From: a virus
Taxonomy: Duplodnaviria > Caudoviricetes
DNA length: 64,000 nucleotides
Direction: 5' to 3' (one strand)
Virus record (IMG/VR): IMGVR_UViG_3300014204_000114
Location: 32,001-96,000 of that record
Shown here piece by piece: positions 21,549-64,000 of this stretch. Position numbers and translations under genes: made by a program. Position 1 is the stretch's first letter. Each line of letters starts with the position of its first letter. Under the pieces are notes generated by a model. The model saw only the letters and a list, made by a program, of their open reading frames with translations, searched no databases and was not told where the DNA came from.

Positions 21549-21941
21549 ATGGAAAAGACGAACATCACTGGTAATGCTGGAGACATGAGCAAAACGGTTG
21601 TCAGGTACACGAAATCCGGACGCCCCGTCACAAACTTCAGCATAGCGAGTCACAGAGGCAAGGACGAAGAGCAAACCACAACATGGCGTCGCGTAGTATG
21701 CTTCGGAAGACTCGCTGAGGTGGCCGCTAAGGGCATTCAGAAGGGATATTACCTCACGGCTGAGGGACGCTTGCAGACCCGCAAATGGGTCGATAAAGAA
21801 GGCGAAGAGCATACCGAAAAGGAGCTCTTAGCTGACAGCATCACGATTCATAACGACCGCGCGCCTAAGACAGACGAAAAAGCACCGGAAGAAGCCCCCG
21901 AAGCAAAAGCACCAGAAGCCGAAGAGAATCTCGACATCTAA
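21549..21941 (+). CDS. ssb: Single-stranded DNA-binding protein
   Basis: ITGNAG, VRYTKSG, TTWRRVVCFGRLAE, EGRLQTRKWVDKEG; acidic tail. Confidence 0.93.
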   Translation: MEKTNITGNAGDMSKTVVRYTKSGRPVTNFSIASHRGKDEEQTTTWRRVVCFGRLAEVAAKGIQKGYYLTAEGRLQTRKWVDKEGEEHTEKELLADSITIHNDRAPKTDEKAPEEAPEAKAPEAEENLDI

Positions 21942-53128: not shown

Positions 53129-53522
53129 GGAGGAGCAAATGTTACTAGTTATTTATACAATTATTTTTATAATAATAACCCTATGTGTAGTTTTCGCGGG
53201 ATTCTTATTTATTATGGGGATAATGTTTGGGATAACAAAGAGAGGGATCGTTTTAACTATTATTAAAGACAATACTTTGGATCCTAAATATTACTCCGAA
53301 TTACTGGCAATCCTAAACAGAGAACTCAAAAATAGTCAGATAATGGAATTTACTAAAAAGATCCCGAGAAAGAGTAAAAATAAACTAGAACAGATAGTTC
53401 CATTAGTTATGGAGCAATGCAAAGATTTAAGGGCGCATATCTATTATTATAAGATTCAGCCTTTGCTGAAATCAATTGAAGTAAAATACGAATCAATTGA
53501 AAAACCAAATAAGTTAAATTAA
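53088..53522 (+). CDS. Membrane-anchored protein (start probably MLLVIY)
   Basis: GGAGG SD; TM segment. Confidence 0.7.
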   Translation: MPRRSILKRCITTKEEQMLLVIYTIIFIIITLCVVFAGFLFIMGIMFGITKRGIVLTIIKDNTLDPKYYSELLAILNRELKNSQIMEFTKKIPRKSKNKLEQIVPLVMEQCKDLRAHIYYYKIQPLLKSIEVKYESIEKPNKLN

Positions 53523-53534
53523 TCGGAGGCAAAA

Positions 53535-55562
53535 ATGTCGATGTATCCTTTTACGTTATTCTTTGAGAAAACATTAAGCGATGAAGATTTCGCAAGCATT
53601 AGTTCACATTTAGAAAGTCTTGACCTTCCTGTTATGCCGTTGATGCTAGAAGAGGGATTAAGCGGTTATGTCATTAATATAACTGACGCCGCGAAAGAAG
53701 AAAAATTAAAAAGAATACTTACTAGTATGGGAGGCTTTGCTAAGTTGTCAGGGATGGCTTACGATGGCCTAATGAGGCTACCTTATGCTTTTGACGCGTT
53801 GATTAAAAGTCAGCTTACGACTCCTGCAGTTCCTGCTATGGAAGACGCGTCCGAAACAAGAAGAAGTTCAGAAGGATGTAACGATGCTCCATGCAGAGGA
53901 TGCGACGCAGAAGAGTGCGAGAATAGAGACGAAGATTACGATGAATATTATGATAATGATAGAGAAAACGAAACCCATAATCACGACGATGATTGCATAT
54001 GTAGATTCTGTGACGAGCCGAATTGCGAAGATAGAGATGAAGAGTTTTTGTGTGGGGGGACTTTAGAAGAATGTGGAGAATGTGATAAAGATTGCCAGTA
54101 CAGGCAAAATGTATTGGCGACTCCTGCCCATCTAACTCCCGAAACCAGAGCTGAAGTAATAGAAGCATTACAAATAGAAATCCCAATAGACGATACTACG
54201 AGAACAGTAAGGGATGGATATTCCGATTTTGCGACAAAGAGCTATAAAAGATATTATAATCCATCCTTAGAATGCGTGAGCCCCACAGGTAATATAGGAT
54301 TATTGCCTTATAGGATGGCTTCCAGATCTCATACGAAAGACGGGCTTAATTTATATTCGAAAGCTATAGCTAAATTGTCCGACGGTGACGGGCCAATGCT
54401 CGTATTTCTTACGAAGTATAGCGATAACGGAGAGGCTCATTGGGAACAGTTGAAGATTATAACAGAAGCTGTCTTAGATGTTATAGAGCCTGCAAAATTA
54501 AACAGATTTAAAACAATATATATATCGGAAACTCATAATTCTGCTCCTATCACTCCGATGGCTATAGACGATAATCTGTATATATGGCTGTGGGCCGATA
54601 TAAAATCCTGTTCCAGCGCAGAGAGGCTAAAATCTCCCGTATATGGGATGACATTAAGAGATTGCGGGATGACAGACCACTTGTCGATATACGATCATAA
54701 TTTGTATGATTATGTGAATTATAGCGACCGATCCGAGGCAATTGCAGGCGTGTCCGGGAATAACATTTATACATTTTTTGACTTGATGCATCCGGACCCC
54801 GAAGGGATTAAAAAGCTTGAATGGAGAAAATCGTATTACGAATTATGGAAAAAGCTTATTCTTGATATGTCCAGCAATATGATGTTAACTCCGGAAGAGA
54901 TATCAAATAAAGCCCAAAAGCAGTTTATCTCTTCTTATAAGAAGTCTATGATCGATTCTATAAACAATTTGAAGAGTGAGATAAGCAGCATATCGCAAAT
55001 AGTCCAGTCTTATGAACGGGATTTTAAAGAGAAGTATTCCGAGATGAAGCAAAAAGAGGATATGCTTTATACTATCGAGGCTAATAAAGACGAAGACAAA
55101 CTGGATTTGAGAGCCCTTGAAATTATAGATATGATAAAAAAGTCTAAGCTTACCAAAAGTGTAGAGTTTGATAAAAGTCAATATCTAATAGTAAATACGA
55201 AAAACATTTTCTGCACCGATCCAAGACAAGGCAACGTCTATGAGCTTGGCGAATTTAAGATTAAGATTCCGTTCAACGGAAAAACTTCAAGCGATATAAG
55301 AATACTGAATCAAACAAGGACGGTGGATGGTTATTGGCACAATCATAATGCCCCGCATGTTGATAATAACGGGAAGCCTTGTTGGGGTTCCGTTGCTATA
55401 GATATGACTAAGGTTTTAACAGAAAAGAAATTCTACGAAGTTTATATGATGTGCCTGGCCTTTTTAGAGACTGTAAACCCGGCTGATTCGGCTGGAGCAT
55501 ACATAGAAAGATGGCCTAAAGTCGAAAGTAAAACTGAAGAAAAAACAGCTGAAGTCGCTTAA
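53535..55562 (+). CDS. Multidomain protein: Cys/acidic repeats, coiled coil, C-terminal prokaryotic E2 (UBC-like) domain
   Basis: APHVDNNGKPCWGS...FLETVNPADSAG; context next to E1/JAB/Ubl. Confidence 0.72.
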   Translation: MSMYPFTLFFEKTLSDEDFASISSHLESLDLPVMPLMLEEGLSGYVINITDAAKEEKLKRILTSMGGFAKLSGMAYDGLMRLPYAFDALIKSQLTTPAVPAMEDASETRRSSEGCNDAPCRGCDAEECENRDEDYDEYYDNDRENETHNHDDDCICRFCDEPNCEDRDEEFLCGGTLEECGECDKDCQYRQNVLATPAHLTPETRAEVIEALQIEIPIDDTTRTVRDGYSDFATKSYKRYYNPSLECVSPTGNIGLLPYRMASRSHTKDGLNLYSKAIAKLSDGDGPMLVFLTKYSDNGEAHWEQLKIITEAVLDVIEPAKLNRFKTIYISETHNSAPITPMAIDDNLYIWLWADIKSCSSAERLKSPVYGMTLRDCGMTDHLSIYDHNLYDYVNYSDRSEAIAGVSGNNIYTFFDLMHPDPEGIKKLEWRKSYYELWKKLILDMSSNMMLTPEEISNKAQKQFISSYKKSMIDSINNLKSEISSISQIVQSYERDFKEKYSEMKQKEDMLYTIEANKDEDKLDLRALEIIDMIKKSKLTKSVEFDKSQYLIVNTKNIFCTDPRQGNVYELGEFKIKIPFNGKTSSDIRILNQTRTVDGYWHNHNAPHVDNNGKPCWGSVAIDMTKVLTEKKFYEVYMMCLAFLETVNPADSAGAYIERWPKVESKTEEKTAEVA

Positions 55563-55576
55563 GAAAGGAGTTTAAA

Positions 55577-56233
55577 TTGGACACAATCAGACCAGCAGAG
55601 TGCAGGAATAGGGTTATATTCAAAGGAGAGATCCCTAAAGTCACTATCTCTCCTGAAGTCATAGACGATTTGTCAATTCTGAAACACCAGGTTGACGGAG
55701 AATTTATGTTCGGAATAATGGCGGAATATGTCGATAACGAATTTAAGATCCAGGGGGTGTATATGTTCCCCCAGACGGTTAATTACGCCGGAGTCAAACC
55801 TAAGACCGAAACTACGATAGAGGAACTATTCTTAAGCATGCCTAATGTCCTTGGAATAGGAATCTGCGAAGAAAAAATGGAAGAATGCGAAAAGGATCTT
55901 AAGGATCATATTGAAAAATTAACCGAAAATATCCCGGTCCCATTCGTTTCAATTTATCTGAATTTTAAAGGCGAATGTCAGGTAAACGCTCATAACTTCG
56001 ACATGTGGGAATTTAAGGATCTTAAGTGGAAATTCCCGACAGTTGTAGATGCTGAAGAAAGAAGAGCTTACTGGGAAAATCAAATTAAAGAGCATGTAGG
56101 GTCCTTCGCTTATCACTATAGCTCGAATCCAATTGGAGGACCAGCATCATGCGGGGCGTCTGCGGAAGCGTATAAAAATGCATTCCCCGGAGCTGCAGAT
56201 GATGAATGTCCTACAGGATTTTATGGGATTTAA
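55577..56233 (+). CDS. JAB/MPN-fold protein lacking the catalytic HxH (pseudo-JAB)
   Basis: Aligns with 62382-63503 (YMFPQ, LNFKG, DLKW, YWENQI), but HSH...D is replaced. Confidence 0.65.
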   Translation: MDTIRPAECRNRVIFKGEIPKVTISPEVIDDLSILKHQVDGEFMFGIMAEYVDNEFKIQGVYMFPQTVNYAGVKPKTETTIEELFLSMPNVLGIGICEEKMEECEKDLKDHIEKLTENIPVPFVSIYLNFKGECQVNAHNFDMWEFKDLKWKFPTVVDAEERRAYWENQIKEHVGSFAYHYSSNPIGGPASCGASAEAYKNAFPGAADDECPTGFYGI

Positions 56234-56242
56234 GGAGAGAAA

Positions 56243-56926
56243 ATGATTGAGACTATGAGACATGTCGCCGTAATTGATCTTGAGCACTCTACAGCCAAAG
56301 ACACAGCTATACATGTGATAGGCTGCGGAGCTTTAGGGTCAAGAGTAGCTTTGGGATTAGCCAAATTAGGCGTTAGTAATATGCATTTATGGGACTTCGA
56401 CAAGATCGAGAGTCATAATATAGCGAATCAGGCATACGGGATTTTGGATGTAGGAAGATATAAAGTAGAAGCTCTCGCAGGGCTGATAGCGAGACAGACC
56501 GGCTTAAAGACCGTGCCTCACCCGGAAAAAGTCGTGAATCAACATTTGTTTGGTTTTATTTTTCTTTTACCTGACTCTATGGAGTCAAGAAGGGAGATTT
56601 GGGATGAGAGCATTAAGTGGAAAGCTGTCGCCTTATTTGAAGGCAGGATGGGCGTATCTGAAGGAAGGGTTTATTACGTTAATCCAAAGGATCCTGTTCA
56701 CATTAGTAAATGGGAGTCTACCCTTTGTCTTGACTCCGAAGCTGAAGATTCTGTTTGCGGTTCTCACATTGCTGTTGGACCTACAGCGGAATTTATCTCC
56801 GCGCTTATGCAATGGCAGTTCATTAAGTATATAAACTCTTTGGAGAAGCCTAGAAAAGTGGAAAATGAGATTATAGCGTATGTAGATCCGCCGCTATATC
56901 TGATGAATTGCTGGAATAATCAATAG
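56243..56926 (+). CDS. ThiF/MoeB-family E1-like adenylyltransferase
   Basis: VIGCGALGS, WDFDKIESHNIANQAY, KVEAL, PDSMESRR, GRMG, SVCG. Confidence 0.93.
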   Translation: MIETMRHVAVIDLEHSTAKDTAIHVIGCGALGSRVALGLAKLGVSNMHLWDFDKIESHNIANQAYGILDVGRYKVEALAGLIARQTGLKTVPHPEKVVNQHLFGFIFLLPDSMESRREIWDESIKWKAVALFEGRMGVSEGRVYYVNPKDPVHISKWESTLCLDSEAEDSVCGSHIAVGPTAEFISALMQWQFIKYINSLEKPRKVENEIIAYVDPPLYLMNCWNNQ

Positions 56927-56958
56927 TAAACTAATAACCAATATAAAGGAGAATTAGA

Positions 56959-57384
56959 ATGGTAACAGTAAAAATGGCAAAGCTTCCTGGTGAGTCGAAG
57001 GAATATCTTTTCGAAGACGGTACCACGTTAGCTAAGGCGCTTGCTACGGCAGGTCTTGATTCCACTGGATATCAGGTCCGCGTATCCGGCACGCTCGTTG
57101 AAGGCGCTTTCGATGAGTTGGAAGTTGAGGATGGCGACAGCGTAATGCTTGTCAAGCCGATCAAGGGCGCTCAGGACTACATCGAAGTCAAGATTGCCAA
57201 GCTTCCTGGCGAACTTAAAGCGTTTTGCCTCAACGGTGACCGCAAGGTTCGGACTCTTATCGCTACCGCAGGATTGACCCTCGGTACCTGCAAAATCCGC
57301 ATCAACGGATTGGAAGGTGATATTGACGATGAGCTGGAAGACGGGGATACGGTAGTCCTCGTAAGTAATATCAAGGGTGCGTAA
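56959..57384 (+). CDS. Tandem di-ubiquitin-like (beta-grasp, ThiS/MoaD-like) protein
   Basis: Two ~70-aa repeats VK(M/I)AKLPGE...EDGD(S/T)V.LV..IKGA. Confidence 0.88.
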   Translation: MVTVKMAKLPGESKEYLFEDGTTLAKALATAGLDSTGYQVRVSGTLVEGAFDELEVEDGDSVMLVKPIKGAQDYIEVKIAKLPGELKAFCLNGDRKVRTLIATAGLTLGTCKIRINGLEGDIDDELEDGDTVVLVSNIKGA

Positions 57385-57433
57385 TTCCCGACTGTTTTGT
57401 TTTGTTTTGTTTTTTACTGAATTAAAATATAAG

Positions 57434-57459
57434 TACAGGGGAAGTTCGCTTCCCCTGTA
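57434..57459. terminator. Hairpin terminator after the Ubl gene
   Basis: TACAGGGGAAG-TTCG-CTTCCCCTGTA. Confidence 0.7.
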
Positions 57460-57482
57460 TCTTAAATATAAAAGGAGGATCC

Positions 57483-57755
57483 GTGGAGGCAAACGAGACA
57501 GTCTTGGAAGAATGTAAGGACTTAAAGATAGTAGAGGAGCTCAAGGCGCGTGTGGAAGCTAATGAGAAGACATTAAAGATAATAAATGAGGGGATGAAAA
57601 ACCTCATGGTTATTTGCATGAAAGTATCAGCTTCTACAGGAGCCTTGGTGAGTGTACTGAGCGAGGAAGAGTTGGAAATTTTCAAAAAGACATACGACAA
57701 AATAATAGAATCTTCCGCGAGCAGTTTAAGTTCGGAAAAGCGCGATAACGCGTGA
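57483..57755 (+). CDS. Coiled-coil hypothetical protein
   Basis: AAGGAGG SD; stop codon supplied by the IS right end. Confidence 0.7.
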   Translation: MEANETVLEECKDLKIVEELKARVEANEKTLKIINEGMKNLMVICMKVSASTGALVSVLSEEELEIFKKTYDKIIESSASSLSSEKRDNA

Positions 57756-58963
57756 TTATTCTATTACGAAAAGTAATAGTTTTTAGGCTGAAGCCAAAGA
57801 CTGTAACCCCAGTCTTAAAATATTTATCGCTGCGTTGTGGTCTCTATCAAGAGATAATCCGCAGCAAGGACAATTATGAGTTCGATCAGAAAGTTTTTTA
57901 AGGACTTTATGACCACAAGAAGAACAAATTTGGGATGTATAAGCGGGGTTGACCAGGATCAATCGTTTATCGGCGCATTCTGCCTTATAAGCAATGAGTC
58001 TGGTAAATTGTCCCCAAGCTACATCAGAAATACTTTTGTTAATGCAAGTATGAGTATGGACCATTTCGTTAATAGACAAATCCTCCATACAGATCGTGTC
58101 GAAAGACTTTACTATACTATTACTCTGTTGATGGGCAAAGTTATTGCGTTTATTAGAGATTCTTTCATGGATCTTAGCTACAACTTTCCTGGCTTTAGCT
58201 CTCTCAGGAGTGCCTTTATTAAGCTTAGAAAATTTTCTTTGAGCTTTAGCCAAAGATTTTTCTTCGTGTTTAAAGAATCTGGGGTTATCAATCTTGACAC
58301 CGTCAGAGAGCGTAGCGAAAGATTCAAGACCCACATCTATACCGACAGATCTGCCGGTTTTAAGAAGTGGATTTTTCTCGACAATACAAGAAAAAGTGAC
58401 ATACCACTTACCAGTAGTAGACTTTTTTATACAGCAAGTCTTAATTTGACCTGTGATATTCCTATGGAGTTTGATTTTGATAGTGCCGATTTTAGAGAGT
58501 TTGAGCCCCTGTTCAGTAATCTTAAAACCGAACTGAGGGAAAGAGAAAGAGTGGTACCTGTTAAACCCTTTAAATCTTGGATAACCCGGTTTATCTCCAG
58601 CCTTAATCCTTCTAAAGAATGCTTTGAAAGAAAGATCGAGCCTAACAAGAACATCCTGAAGGACTTGAGAATGAATATTTTTAAGACTACTTCTCAGCTC
58701 TTTAGTCTCTACAAGAAAAGAGTTTTGGGCATAATAACTCAAACTTTTATTTTCGATTTCCCAACATTTTTTACGCTGTTCAAGAAAGTAATTATACAGC
58801 CAGCGGCATTCTTCAAGCCACATATTCATAATGTGAGTTTGTTTGCTCGTTGGATATATACGGAATTTATATGCTTTAAGCATAGTTATAGTATGCGCTT
58901 AAAAAACAAGATGTCAATAGTTAGTACGATACAGAAATACAAAAATAGTACCAGAGCTGACAT
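57752..58963 (-). mobile_element. tnpB-only IS200/IS605-family element with an eroded left end
   Basis: Right end CTATTAC/GTAATAG hairpin + AATAATCAC; left boundary uncertain (candidate TCAT TAM at 58964-58967). Confidence 0.6.
57783..58883 (-). CDS. tnpB: TnpB RNA-guided nuclease
   Basis: MLKAYKFRIYP, GIDVG / MEDL / DRDHNAA, CSSC..CPCC. Confidence 0.95.
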   Translation of the reverse strand: MLKAYKFRIYPTSKQTHIMNMWLEECRWLYNYFLEQRKKCWEIENKSLSYYAQNSFLVETKELRSSLKNIHSQVLQDVLVRLDLSFKAFFRRIKAGDKPGYPRFKGFNRYHSFSFPQFGFKITEQGLKLSKIGTIKIKLHRNITGQIKTCCIKKSTTGKWYVTFSCIVEKNPLLKTGRSVGIDVGLESFATLSDGVKIDNPRFFKHEEKSLAKAQRKFSKLNKGTPERAKARKVVAKIHERISNKRNNFAHQQSNSIVKSFDTICMEDLSINEMVHTHTCINKSISDVAWGQFTRLIAYKAECADKRLILVNPAYTSQICSSCGHKVLKKLSDRTHNCPCCGLSLDRDHNAAINILRLGLQSLASA

Positions 58964-60760: not shown

Positions 60761-62359
60761 ATGTATCTTAATCTTGAAACTCTCGTAAACGAACTAGGAA
60801 GAACGTGGGGATTTTACGTAAAAATATCAAGTGAAAGTTTCGGCACTACTATCAAAACTAGAAATAAACTTCATGACAAAGGTATCATATCAACTGATTT
60901 CTATCATAGCGAAGGAGATTACGGGCTTTTGATGGACGCCGAGAATTTGATTAAGCTTGAGACTCTTTATGGAAGAGCGGAAGTGACAGGACTCGTATGT
61001 CCTCATTATGAGAATATGATAGAAGTCACTTTAAGCTCTCCTGTCCTTGATGCTATATTGCCCGAACAAACAGAATTAATAGTAGATTTACTAACGGCAG
61101 ATATCCTACCTAAAAAGAAAAAGCCTAAGAAGAAAACCGAAGATGATATAACAGGAACTGCCTCTTCAGAGTTAGAGTTTTTACTAAAAGATGAAGAAGT
61201 TGTGTCTCTCCTAAAGAATATAACGAAATCGCTAAAGCTTAATGAGTTTTTAGTAAGCAGAACTATCATAGACTGTTCTATCGAAGACAGATTTACAGTC
61301 CTCATAGGATCTTATCAGGATGATTCCCCAATGGGTTATAATAAATTCTCGTGCGGATCTTTTGATAAGATAAAAAGCCCTTCCAGTATGTATCTGTATC
61401 TTGATACGGGATACGATAGAATTTACGATGTTGTATTCAAGGACTACGCGGGAGTTCCATTCGCAGGTTCTCATAGAGAAATCCACGCGTTATACCTGTT
61501 TTGGAACATATTTGATCAGGTAGAGCGTATTGATAGTAGAAACGAAGCTAAGCTGAATGATTTTAGAAAGAAATACATCACTGAAATACTTAAAAGATTC
61601 GATTTATACTTGACTGACCAAAAAGAGTATGCTAAGAAATATGAGAATAATGGTAAGTCTCTGAAGATGTCAGAATCGGCAGTAAAAGATATTTATAATA
61701 AGGCGGGGAAGACCGAACTTAAGAAAGCTGAATTAATAGTTAAATATGGAACTCAGATTATAGATAAAATTTATTTACAGTTACACAAATACGAACAAAT
61801 GGTGATAGCCGCAGGCGAAAAGGTAAAAATGTTCAGAGAAAATGATAGTGAAGAAAAATTTACACAGAGATATAGGAAAGAATTAGAATTAGTTAATAAG
61901 AATTCAAAAGTACTCAATGCTGCTATTTCTGAAAATCAATTAATAATTCATACGGATATGTTATATTGTGAAAATCCGCAGACTCATAAAGTTCACGAAA
62001 TAGGCAAATTTATCATAATGTTCGAGTTATCGTTAATGACCGGAGGAGATAACGAAGGTCTAGTAAAGTGGATTAATGTAACTCATAAAATAAAGGGATT
62101 TAGCAATCAGTTTATGAACGCTCCTCATATATTTAATGATGGACATGCATGTCTCGGATCAATAGCGGGAACATTTTCTAAATTATTAAATAATCATGAG
62201 ATAGCATCTGCTGTTGATTTAGCAATCCAATTTGTGGAAAGCGTAAATCCGGTGGATGCGGCAGGATCATTTATAGGGAATTGGCCGATAGTAGAAACGG
62301 AGAAGAAGAATGAAGAAACTAGGGAAGAGACGGAAGCAGAACTCGCAGAAACAGCGTAA
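60761..62359 (+). CDS. Coiled-coil protein with C-terminal prokaryotic E2-like domain (paralog of 53535-55562)
   Basis: APHIFNDGHACLGS...FVESVNPVDAAG. Confidence 0.72.
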   Translation: MYLNLETLVNELGRTWGFYVKISSESFGTTIKTRNKLHDKGIISTDFYHSEGDYGLLMDAENLIKLETLYGRAEVTGLVCPHYENMIEVTLSSPVLDAILPEQTELIVDLLTADILPKKKKPKKKTEDDITGTASSELEFLLKDEEVVSLLKNITKSLKLNEFLVSRTIIDCSIEDRFTVLIGSYQDDSPMGYNKFSCGSFDKIKSPSSMYLYLDTGYDRIYDVVFKDYAGVPFAGSHREIHALYLFWNIFDQVERIDSRNEAKLNDFRKKYITEILKRFDLYLTDQKEYAKKYENNGKSLKMSESAVKDIYNKAGKTELKKAELIVKYGTQIIDKIYLQLHKYEQMVIAAGEKVKMFRENDSEEKFTQRYRKELELVNKNSKVLNAAISENQLIIHTDMLYCENPQTHKVHEIGKFIIMFELSLMTGGDNEGLVKWINVTHKIKGFSNQFMNAPHIFNDGHACLGSIAGTFSKLLNNHEIASAVDLAIQFVESVNPVDAAGSFIGNWPIVETEKKNEETREETEAELAETA

Positions 62360-62381: not shown

Positions 62382-63503
62382 ATGGTAGATCATGCGCCGC
62401 ACAATTTCGAACCCAAGTTTAAATACGATCAGGTATTTAAAATTTTTATAACTCCGCAGGCTATGGCGGACATGTCTTTAATAGTCGATATATGTACTGA
62501 AGAAGTAGGATGGATGGGATATGTAGAAAGAAGAGGAAACGATTTTATAGTATATGATGTTTTCGTCCCTAAACAGAAAGCTTCATCCGTATTATGCGAA
62601 TTAGACTTTACTGCACTGGCTGAAGTAGGAGAAGCTTTAATACAAACTCCGGACGGAATAGCGAAATATAACCAAATGAGATTCTGGGGCCATTCCCATC
62701 ATACGATGGGGACAAGTCCTTCAGGTCAGGACGATATCCAATTAAGAGAATTCGACGCGTGCGAATGGTTTATCAGAGGAATCCTGAATAAGCATGGAAG
62801 AATGGAGTTGACTTTATACTTCTTTAAGTTAGGGTTAGAGATAAGAGACGTCCCGTGGCAAATATATTATGAGCCCAATCCGTCCAAAGTCGAATATTGG
62901 GAAAGCGAAATAGAGAAGAATGTCGAAGTGACTAAGTACGTGGCTGAGACAAGATGGAACGGGACCGAATGGCATAAGGAATGGAATCAGAACTGGAGAA
63001 CAAATTACAAAAAAGACAAAATCGACCAAAGAGATATAGGATTCAGAGCGCCTAATAAGACCGCACGAAACATTCACGAATACTTCAAAGAGAAAGTTCG
63101 GGAAGATAATAAGGATGTACTTAGCGATATAGAAAAGAATACGGAAGAGGCTTTAAGAGCAGCCGCGGATATAGCCATGGGCAGAAAGGCAAAAAGCAGT
63201 AGTATATCCTGTAAAGTCGAAGTTATGGATGCGTCCGTAGGTAAAATTTTGCACAAAACCGATTGTAGTGTCCCGGATGATGGATGGGACATAGAGATGC
63301 TGGTTGACACTTTCTATAGTCATTTGTCTCAAGCGATGTACAATGACGGATTATCTTTTATAAGAAAGATACAAGGTATAGGATGGGAACCGGTTAAGGG
63401 CGGATATAAGATTGAAGATAAGGACGTGCTTGTAATAATCATAGAGGATTTATTAATGAATGCAAAATTAATCGAGGATATTAAAACCGAGGCTGCCTTA
63501 TGA
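62382..63503 (+). CDS. JAB/MPN+ metalloprotease (Ubl processing/deconjugation)
   Basis: EVGWMG, RFWGHSHHTMGTSPSGQDD; GGAGG SD before MVDHAP. Confidence 0.88.
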   Translation: MVDHAPHNFEPKFKYDQVFKIFITPQAMADMSLIVDICTEEVGWMGYVERRGNDFIVYDVFVPKQKASSVLCELDFTALAEVGEALIQTPDGIAKYNQMRFWGHSHHTMGTSPSGQDDIQLREFDACEWFIRGILNKHGRMELTLYFFKLGLEIRDVPWQIYYEPNPSKVEYWESEIEKNVEVTKYVAETRWNGTEWHKEWNQNWRTNYKKDKIDQRDIGFRAPNKTARNIHEYFKEKVREDNKDVLSDIEKNTEEALRAAADIAMGRKAKSSSISCKVEVMDASVGKILHKTDCSVPDDGWDIEMLVDTFYSHLSQAMYNDGLSFIRKIQGIGWEPVKGGYKIEDKDVLVIIIEDLLMNAKLIEDIKTEAAL

Positions 63504-64000
63504 TAGAAATCCTGAGACATATGGAAGTATTCAATCCTGATAATTTTACGGACAACGTACATATTATCGGCTGCGGATCCATAGGCTCTAATATAGCTTT
63601 GAGTATGGCTAAATTAGGTATCCCGGGGGATCAGATAACAGCATATGATTTCGATAAGGTAGAGGAGCATAATATTGCGAATCAGGCATACGCCCTAAAA
63701 CACATAGGCTGGTCTAAAGTAGATGCTTTATTCGATCAAATCAAATATTATACAGGAGAGGAAATAGACATTCGGGAAGAGAGAGTAGAAGATAAAGTAA
63801 GGCTAAATGGAATAGTCTTTCTGGTTACAGATACGATGAAATCCCGGCGGGAAATATTTAATTCCTGTATCAAGATGAAAATGGCTGTTAAATTGATGAT
63901 CGAAGTCAGAATGGATGCGGCTGAAGGGAGAGTCTACACTATTAACCCGATGTCTTATTCCGAAACGAAGTTCTGGGAAGACGTCTCGCAGTACACTGAC
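63500..64000 (+). CDS. Second ThiF/E1-like enzyme, partial (runs off window)
   Basis: MIEILRHMEVF...HIIGCGSIGS...DFDKVEEHNIANQAY...TDTMKSRR. Confidence 0.9.
   Translation, partial: MIEILRHMEVFNPDNFTDNVHIIGCGSIGSNIALSMAKLGIPGDQITAYDFDKVEEHNIANQAYALKHIGWSKVDALFDQIKYYTGEEIDIREERVEDKVRLNGIVFLVTDTMKSRREIFNSCIKMKMAVKLMIEVRMDAAEGRVYTINPMSYSETKFWEDVSQYTD

Follow-up and report, generated by a model that had tools for sequence, protein, structure and literature searches.

A tandem ubiquitin-like gene in a tailed-phage genome and its possible role as a polyubiquitin-like precursor

The IMG/VR virus record IMGVR_UViG_3300014204_000114 (Duplodnaviria; Caudoviricetes; 187,794 bp, judged 99% complete) was analyzed over the 64,000-nucleotide stretch that spans genome positions 32001–96000; this whole stretch is called the window, and coordinates are window positions unless marked as genome positions. 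At 56959–57384 it carries a gene that encodes two ubiquitin-like proteins (Ubls) joined head to tail, here called the di-Ubl, among genes for ThiF-type activating enzymes (E1), conjugating-enzyme-like (E2-like) proteins and JAB-family proteins. We lean toward the view that this gene encodes a polyubiquitin-like precursor belonging to a ubiquitin-like tagging system of phage type. The initial annotation, made from the letters alone, had described a head-to-tail di-Ubl whose two tail glycines are both capped by alanine, and the sequence bears this description out; the gene lies in an E2-like/JAB/E1 context. The comparative data favour a processed precursor: in the sequences of its relatives the internal and the terminal glycine are both invariant, the number of units varies from one to four, the glycine is almost never C-terminal, and the repeats are under strong purifying selection. 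The gene, its parts and its nearest signals are the following.

56959–57384, plus strand: di-Ubl gene, 141 amino acids (aa) plus stop, ATG start
56946–56951, plus strand: Shine-Dalgarno sequence AAGGAG, 7 nt 5′ of the ATG, read from the sequence
56959–57168, plus strand: unit A, residues 1–70, "E-D-G-T-T" type, tail K69-G70; Pfam ThiS match at 8.5e-6; G70 invariant
57169–57171 (GCT), plus strand: Ala71, proposed P1′ residue of the internal cleavage site, next to the G70 codon GGC (57166–57168)
57172–57378, plus strand: unit B, residues 72–140, "L-N-G-D-R" type, tail K139-G140; G140 invariant
57379–57381 (GCG), plus strand: Ala141, a one-residue C-terminal cap after the G140 codon GGT (57376–57378) and before the TAA
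57434–57459, no strand assigned: GC-rich hairpin with an 11-bp stem and a UUCG loop, 50 nt 3′ of the di-Ubl stop; resembles a terminator on either strand, more so on the minus strand

Read from the DNA, unit 1 ends in LVKPIKG(70)A(71) and unit 2 in LVSNIKG(140)A(141)-stop. Residues 1–71 align with residues 72–141 from end to end at 44% identity (E 9e-17; proportion of nonsynonymous differences, pN, 0.37), and repeats that encode one identical product are therefore not a feature of this gene. Both units are beta-grasp domains of the ThiS/MoaD/SAMP class. Unit 1 scores 26.7 bits against Pfam ThiS (PF02597), for which the gathering cut-off is 22.5, and of 51 two-unit relatives 25 match ThiS and 22 match SAMP2; when a sequence profile was compared with the Protein Data Bank (PDB), the nearest solved proteins were SAMP2 (2.5e-6) and PF1061. 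An AlphaFold2 (AF2) model built from the alignment of the 51 two-unit relatives has a predicted local distance difference test score (pLDDT) of 92.3 and contains two beta-grasp domains with a short linker; it replaced a poor model made from the single sequence (pLDDT 46). Over its full length Foldseek matches the model best to linear di-ubiquitin, ISG15 and FAT10, and the per-domain VIA matches include MoaD (Z 9.8), SAMP1 (9.5), ThiS in the ThiS-ThiF complex (9.5) and Citrobacter BubA (8.2), as well as Urm1 and TtuB. The two diverged beta-grasp repeats, each ending in IKG-A, that had been noticed by eye are thus confirmed by alignment, DNA reading and predicted fold alike. The C-terminal Gly-Gly of the ThiS/MoaD/SAMP class is not present; the di-Ubl tails are K-G followed by Ala, and the family consensus is [KR]-G-[N/A/G].

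The evidence that carries the precursor reading comes from the relatives. Among 1.84 billion cluster representatives, searched exhaustively with HMMER, there are 294 relatives at E ≤ 1e-3 (a word-index homologue search gave the di-Ubl itself as its sole match), and by the unit profile the best 147 of these 294 carry one unit (31 proteins), two (84), three (26) or four (6). Across the 51 two-unit proteins the invariant columns are G70 and G140 and no others, and K69 and K139 are at least 90% conserved. A tail Gly could be placed in all but 23 units. Of the 147 internal and 131 terminal units that have one, 137 and 117, respectively, carry the tail [K/R]-G, and the residue that follows is N, A or G in 143 internal (N 124, G 11, A 8) and 124 terminal units (N 101, A 13, G 10). 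The Gly is the final residue of the protein in 3 of the 131 terminal units; what lies beyond the last Gly is otherwise, for example, N alone (42), NK (11) or A alone (6), with NR, NA and others also found, and in about ten proteins it is an extra domain of 84–161 residues. The spacers between units are 1–39 residues long, some with long acidic runs. A conserved Gly that may be followed by anything between one residue and a whole domain is the pattern to be expected of a cleavage site that exposes a reactive C-terminus, and not of a structural linker. In the tetra-Ubl of locus L043 the repeats are 82–92% identical in protein, with proportions of synonymous differences (pS) of 0.67–0.76, which is saturated, and ratios of nonsynonymous to synonymous rates (dN/dS) of 0.03–0.06; the combination of high protein identity and saturated synonymous sites means that these repeats are old and that each is held to the same sequence by selection.

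Two unit types can be told apart, type A with E-[ED]-G-x-T after the second strand and type B with L-N-G-D-R-x-V, and for each type there are also genes of about 70 aa that stand alone. The A-then-B architecture of the di-Ubl is found in nine proteins, whose units are about 40% identical and which keep the internal K-G-[N/A] in 8 of 9 cases. The closest relatives of unit A are stand-alone A-type monomers and the first units of other di-Ubls, while unit B is closest to the second units in L002/P0009 and to B-type monomers that stand alone, P0087 and P0108 among them. A further layout was seen in P0059, P0064, P0070, P0079, P0096, P0117 and P0131 and in L049 (8746–9360), L054 (3642–4691) and L065 (8971–9954), where an A- or B-type unit ending in K-G-N is followed by a tail-less degenerate beta-grasp and then by 80–250 further residues; these fusions are reminiscent of ubiquitin-ribosomal-protein fusions. 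Three long proteins (P0078, P0106 and P0139, about 1000–1900 aa) were dropped as relatives, being unrelated repeat-rich proteins (an Fn3-type array and other repeat arrays).

The enzyme genes of the phage form two cassettes, one on each side of a transposon-type gene.

53535–55562, plus strand: cassette 1 E2-like protein, 675 aa, with the motif P-H...G..C.G...N..D..G....W in its C-terminal ~130 aa
55577–56233, plus strand: cassette 1 pseudo-JAB, 218 aa, predicted MPN-minus, recognized by homology to the JAB-family profile
56243–56926, plus strand: cassette 1 E1 (E1a), 227 aa, ThiF-type (Pfam ThiF 3.8e-18), directly 5′ of the di-Ubl gene
57783–58883, minus strand: TnpB/IS605 OrfB-type gene with HTH_OrfB, OrfB_IS605 and Cas12f1-like TNB domains, between the two cassettes
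60761–62359, plus strand: cassette 2 E2-like protein, 532 aa, a paralogue of the 675-aa protein
62382–63503, plus strand: cassette 2 JAB/MPN+ peptidase with an intact site (E, H-S-H-x7-S-x2-D); the open reading frame (ORF) is open from 62310, and homologues start at about 62382
63500–64000, plus strand: cassette 2 E1 (E1b), 219 aa, running 159 nt beyond the end of the window

A profile scan of every ORF of the genome found one Ubl gene, the di-Ubl, together with two E1s, two E2-like proteins and two JAB-family proteins. Cassette 2 starts 3.4 kb downstream of the di-Ubl, beyond the TnpB insertion on the opposite strand, and the same whole-genome scan found no Ubl gene after the second E1; a 113-aa ORF that follows this E1 just beyond the window (genome 96187–96528, plus strand) lies outside this Ubl family. 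The JAB profile, made from 11 sequences, has invariant E41, H104-S-H106, S114 and D117 and matches Rpn11 (1.2e-5), CSN5 and BRCC36. The 218-aa protein of cassette 1 matches this phage JAB profile over 162 columns (hhalign 93.9%, E 1.6e-7; hidden Markov model E 1.2e-8), but it has G-I-G-I-C-E-E-K in place of G-H-S-H-H-T-M-G and has also lost the Ser and the Asp, and by its sequence it is classed as an MPN-minus pseudo-enzyme; it has no homologue in any locus retrieved. Because the cassette 1 protein lacks the zinc site, the JAB at 62382 is the only phage protease able to mature a precursor, and the proposal that this enzyme be used in cleavage assays was sensible, as it is the sole JAB in the genome with an intact E/HxH/S/D site. 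The active and the inactive copy together recall, by analogy, the eukaryotic MPN+/MPN− pairs Rpn11/Rpn8 and CSN5/CSN6. A prediction of the complex from the JAB and di-Ubl alignments, run without controls, gave an ipSAE of 0.23 against a mark of 0.32 and speaks neither for nor against binding.

The E1s share the invariant motifs GCGxxGS, DFD, D111...R116 and S-x-C172-G, and the Cys of the last could be the thioester site. The C-terminal ~130 residues of the E2-like proteins contain an invariant P-H-x(4-5)-G-x2-C-x-G ... N-x2-D-x2-G-x5-W (9 sequences), which reads like the HPN...Cys core of E2 enzymes, and on conserved motifs the JAB, the E1s and the E2-like proteins all look active. Against PDB profiles every match of the E2-like domain has E > 0.2, UBE2W (E about 1.3) aligning over the HPN-Cys region only; an ESM Atlas neighbour of the 532-aa paralogue is annotated Prok-E2_D (TM 0.54), and no Pfam, NCBIfam or PADLOC model recognizes these proteins. 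The assignment of the 675- and 532-aa proteins as E2s is likely. Residues ~105–190 in the N-terminal part of the 675-aa protein are very acidic and Cys-rich with several C-x2-C-like pairs, a stretch that the 532-aa paralogue is without and that may be a metal-binding or target-recognition module. PADLOC gives no match for the Ubl, the E2-like proteins or the JAB, and matches the E1 to E1-E2 models of CBASS (a signaling system against phages that is based on cyclic oligonucleotides) only, while NCBIfam offers generic ThiF and 6A-MBL cap2_3 below cut-off only (the presence of Bil models in these two libraries is unconfirmed); no entry of PHROGs, PADLOC or NCBIfam matches the Ubl, either E2-like protein or the pseudo-JAB, and the JAB has no Pfam match either.

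An E2-like/JAB-like/E1/Ubl cassette of this kind is found again on numerous phage contigs. A short ThiF-type E1 precedes the Ubl gene in 6 of the 7 loci with flanking sequence, the window included: it lies directly upstream of the poly-Ubl in L003, L004, L042, L044 and the window, in L002 one HD_4 gene lies between, and L043 is the only one of the seven without an adjacent E1. The cassette 1 E1 shares 41–48% identity with the E1s found before poly-Ubl genes in other loci. Further upstream of the E1, wherever the contig reaches far enough, come JAB and E2-like genes; two contigs below 1.5 kb (L045 and L046) have no enzyme genes, and L004, also below 1.5 kb, still has its E1. With the E1 alignment as query (a single Ubl or a single E1 gave no confirmed relatives), the JAB-E1 core was found in 36 IMG/VR loci (contigs up to 180 kb) and 30 loci from metagenome-assembled genomes (MAGs), many with an E2-like gene and a Ubl; the MAG loci are labelled with very diverse phyla, and many of them have the Ubl either before or after the E2-like/JAB/E1 genes. 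The closest relatives lie on IMG/VR contigs of 40–180 kb. Tandem E2-like genes (~600 and ~285 aa) precede the JAB and E1 in L048 (4074–6649), L051 (13–2147) and L055 (4211–6879).

If the di-Ubl is a precursor, its use would run as follows. The single active JAB (62382–63503) would cut after Gly70 and Gly140, removing the caps and freeing two non-identical Ubl monomers of about 70 residues each. The free C-terminal Gly would then be adenylated by the ThiF-type E1, with C172 as candidate thioester Cys, and the Ubl would be handed to the conserved Cys in the C-terminal E2-like domain of the 675- or 532-aa protein and finally attached to phage or host targets, which the long and variable N-terminal regions of the E2-like proteins probably select. 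The first step has a close experimental counterpart: in the BilABCD system of E. aridi the Ubl BilA ends in Gly97-Ala98 and is not adenylatable while Ala98 is present, and the JAB BilC cuts between Gly97 and Ala98 (PMC10557695). This is a direct experimental precedent for a JAB that takes off a single Ala behind a reactive Gly.

Several observations weigh against a processed precursor. The one JAB that is active belongs to the other cassette, at a distance of 5 kb, and the E2 assignment draws on the motif, the faint UBE2W match and the ESM Atlas lead. The mono-Ubl right after the E1 in L008 and L010 (10702–10908 in both) ends in K-I-K-S-N, with Ser replacing the Gly. The conservation of the internal K-G-[N/A/G] could have another role, for instance in an inter-domain hinge or an E1/E2 contact, which leads to the main rival, a lesser though real possibility: a modifier like ISG15 or FAT10, from which Ala141 alone is removed, the whole 140-residue di-Ubl being conjugated and the internal K-G-A remaining as an uncut linker or recognition element. 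BilA of Type I Bil systems and eukaryotic ISG15 and FAT10 are two-beta-grasp modifiers that are used intact (bioRxiv 10.1101/2023.09.04.556158), and the fold matches agree with this; moreover, the A-then-B order is conserved in L001, L002 and L004, as for a fixed two-domain protein, and the AF2 model is confident through the short linker (pLDDT 85–87). However, the N-terminal domain of an ISG15-like protein has no reactive-Gly tail, whereas in this family the internal and the terminal Gly are equally invariant. Intact use also fails to explain unit numbers of one to four, linkers of 1–39 residues and stand-alone A and B genes beside E1s, and the near-identity of homotypic repeats in the face of saturated synonymous change speaks against it as well.

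The strong preference for Asn after the Gly could mean that the mature end is not the Gly at all. MccB-type E1-like enzymes act on a C-terminal Asn, and it is conceivable, but improbable, that the mature tag ends in K-G-N (here K-G-A), with cleavage after that residue and adenylation of the Asn or Ala by the ThiF-type enzyme. Asn follows the Gly in 85% of units, more than a mere cap would need, and the terminal units that end exactly in G-N (42 of 131) or G-A (6 of 131) would need no processing if that residue belonged to the tag. On the other hand, the position after the Gly varies among N, A and G while the Gly itself is invariant, Ala at both sites in this phage excludes an Asn-specific chemistry here, and in the single case of a G-A ending that has been tested the JAB cuts between the G and the A (PMC10557695). 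A third explanation, very improbable to us, is that the units are sulfur carriers of the ThiS/MoaD/TtuB type, adenylated by the E1 for thiocarboxylate formation (tRNA or cofactor thiolation) without conjugation, and only trimmed by the JAB. Such trimming of sulfur-carrier precursors is familiar from QbsD/QbsE and Mec+/CysO, the best single-unit matches by fold and sequence are ThiS, MoaD, SAMP and TtuB, and the E1 is of minimal ThiF size. Nevertheless, no gene for a rhodanese, a TtuA-type/ATP_bind_3 protein or a cysteine desulfurase is present anywhere in the 99%-complete genome, and the cassette is accompanied by a conserved E2-like gene whose product has an invariant Cys; these two facts disfavour a pure sulfur-carrier role. 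Besides, the tail is K-G and not G-G, and it is hard to see what a catalytic carrier would gain from being encoded in tandem.

The precursor reading can be taken further, to a hetero-polyubiquitin in which one highly expressed precursor would give tags A and B, one for each of two anciently diverged E1/E2-like cascades, with maturation by an Rpn11/Rpn8-like pair of active JAB and pseudo-JAB. Taken as a whole this seems rather unlikely. If true, the phage would run two parallel ubiquitin-like codes during infection, and dependence on both the JAB of cassette 2 and the pseudo-JAB of cassette 1 would tie the cassettes into one system. The suggestion of one Ubl per E1/E2 module, made in the initial annotation, is speculative, and the evidence on it is mixed. 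In its favour, cassette 2 has no Ubl gene of its own, A- and B-type units are separate genes elsewhere, and other two-cassette genomes carry two Ubl genes: L067 has tandem sets, and in L050 and L006–L010 there is a further set, more divergent and equipped with a beta-grasp protein of its own. Also in its favour, E1b is no recent copy of E1a: in a quick tree it falls outside a 21-member clade (SH-aLRT 96) comprising E1a together with E1s from other phages. E1a is 45–48% identical to other phages' E1s vs 41% to E1b, and a recent duplication of the cassette within this genome was rejected on these grounds. Against one Ubl per module, A-B di-Ubls adjoin a single E1 in L002 and L004, both short contigs; most of the relatives lie on contigs under 10 kb. 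An attempt to pair unit A or B with an E1 type by phylogeny gave no assignment, A- and B-type monomers both being found beside E1a-clade enzymes.

The genomes with two Ubl genes are not alike. On an 84-kb MAG contig labelled Gammaproteobacteria, L067 (2213–8883) has two complete tandem E2-like, JAB, E1 and Ubl cassettes, whose two E1s are each other's closest relatives and whose Ubls each end in R-G-G with the Gly last; this is a lineage-specific duplication in which one Ubl was kept per cassette. In L006 (13416–14153), and also in L007, L008 and L010, a second and divergent protein has three beta-grasp units that end in N-V-K-G-A (or V-Q-G-A or V-E-G-A), and it sits between a SbcC-like ATPase gene and a second module, whose members are a 650-aa JAB fusion and a ThiF of the classical kind. 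Two dissimilar Ubl systems are thus present in these phages of ~180 kb.

Eukaryotic polyubiquitin genes (UBI4/UBB/UBC) encode head-to-tail units that each end in the conjugation Gly of an R-G-G tail, the last being capped, and a peptidase frees the monomers. The phage family resembles them in its head-to-tail units with a tail Gly on each and an extra residue capping the last, and in homotypic relatives such as L043 that are near-identical in protein with diverged synonymous sites. It differs in that the units are ThiS/SAMP-like, the tail is K-G and not R-G-G, and the N/A/G after the Gly is conserved at internal junctions; in the di-Ubl of the window, moreover, the 44% identity of the units means that the products would be two different tags. 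ISG15 and FAT10 likewise have two beta-grasp domains in one chain, but both phage units carry the tail and not the C-terminal one alone. Archaeal SAMP systems (SAMP/UbaA/HvJAMM1 and PfJAMM1-SAMP2, PDB 5LDA) are closest by profile, through SAMP2, with SAMP1 among the fold matches, and they too pair a ThiF-type E1 and a JAMM peptidase with a modifier resembling ThiS; unlike the phage system, their modifiers are single units ending in G-G, they have no E2, and they are cellular and not viral.

Among bacterial systems the nearest are BilABCD Types I and II (Hör et al., bioRxiv 10.1101/2023.09.04.556158; Chambers et al., PMC10557695), in which Ubl, E2, JAB and E1 genes are likewise co-located and in which the E. 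aridi Ubl ends in the Gly-Ala from which the JAB removes the Ala. The Bil order is Ubl-E2-JAB-E1, of which the phage order is a circular permutation, and L048, L055 and L063 show the exact Bil order. In contrast to BilABCD, the cassette described here lies in a 187.8-kb virus record and not in a bacterial defence island, the phage E1s are of minimal ThiF type (220–235 aa), the E2-like domain stands at the end of a 500–700-aa protein, and the reactive Gly, which BilA has in its last domain only, is on every unit. In 2006 bacterial operon type 6e, "polyUbl," with tandem Ub-like domains and E1/E2/JAB genes, was already likened to polyubiquitin (Iyer, Burroughs and Aravind, PMC1779556), and work on the multi-domain Ubls of Bil and Bub operons has followed; Ubl3 proteins act as intact filaments (PMC11601603). 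Like the phage cassette, the 6e and Bub systems (PMC1779556, PMC11601603) associate proteins of two or three Ub-like domains in tandem with genes for E1, JAB and E2-fold proteins. In them, however, the JAB is fused to the E1, there is either an inactive RWD-like E2 or an E2 fused to the Ubl, and DUF6527 is present, whereas the phage JAB and E1 are separate and the E2-like Cys is invariant. The Multiubiquitin family (PF14452) also sets them apart, giving no match to the di-Ubl at E ≤ 1 or to the 51 relatives at E ≤ 0.01.

A literature search on phage-encoded ubiquitin-like systems found no paper describing this phage cassette. Work on ubiquitin-like conjugation in bacteria has until now treated it as a defence against phages (CBASS Cap2/Cap3, Bil) or a stress system (Bub); in the present case it is a virus that owns the whole set, polyubiquitin-style precursor included. 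What is distinctive is thus the viral setting, the cleavage/conjugation tail on every unit, and a heterotypic precursor with duplicated cascades and one live and one dead JAB. An invariant reactive Gly on each unit, variable unit number and purifying selection on the repeats are features thought typical of eukaryotic polyubiquitin genes, and that phage tags resembling ThiS and SAMP have them too suggests convergence or else a far more ancient origin of the "tandem precursor plus DUB" (deubiquitinase) design. The phage is a favourable test case: with one Ubl gene of two distinguishable units, two E1/E2-like pairs, and a single active JAB beside a dead one, simple in vitro assays could reveal processing, pairing and targets.

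The expression signals around the di-Ubl gene are consistent with an abundant product. Its GC content is 0.507 vs about 0.39 for the genome, and its GC content at third codon positions (GC3) is 0.535 vs a genome mean of 0.362 (z about 3.0), which ranks it second of 197 ORFs of at least 100 aa; an SSB-like ORF ranks just above it, and the probable major capsid gene is its neighbour in this ranking. The strong Shine-Dalgarno sequence (AAGGAG, 7 nt before the ATG) and the GC-richer codon style like that of ssb, both remarked on in the initial annotation, are thus real, and together they point to high expression, which would suit a protein consumed stoichiometrically. The claim that the gene has its own terminator holds in part. 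A stable hairpin does lie 50 nt after the stop, and the 96-nt stretch that holds it (57385–57480) has a folding energy of −27.5 kcal/mol (z −4.25 vs shuffles); however, no T run follows the stem on the plus strand and the terminator scan score is higher for the minus strand, so that the hairpin looks better as a terminator for the TnpB strand. An Rfam search around the gene gave no relevant match, nor did blastn of 53500–57500 match any GenBank phage. An antisense ORF of 154 aa (57028–57492) overlaps the di-Ubl gene and exists as a by-product of the GC-rich stretch. High GC3 (0.52–0.57) is common to the di-Ubl gene, the SSB-like ORF (21549–21941, plus strand) and the probable major capsid gene (genome 17991–19217, minus strand), and the phage seems to keep a separate codon style for a few abundant proteins.

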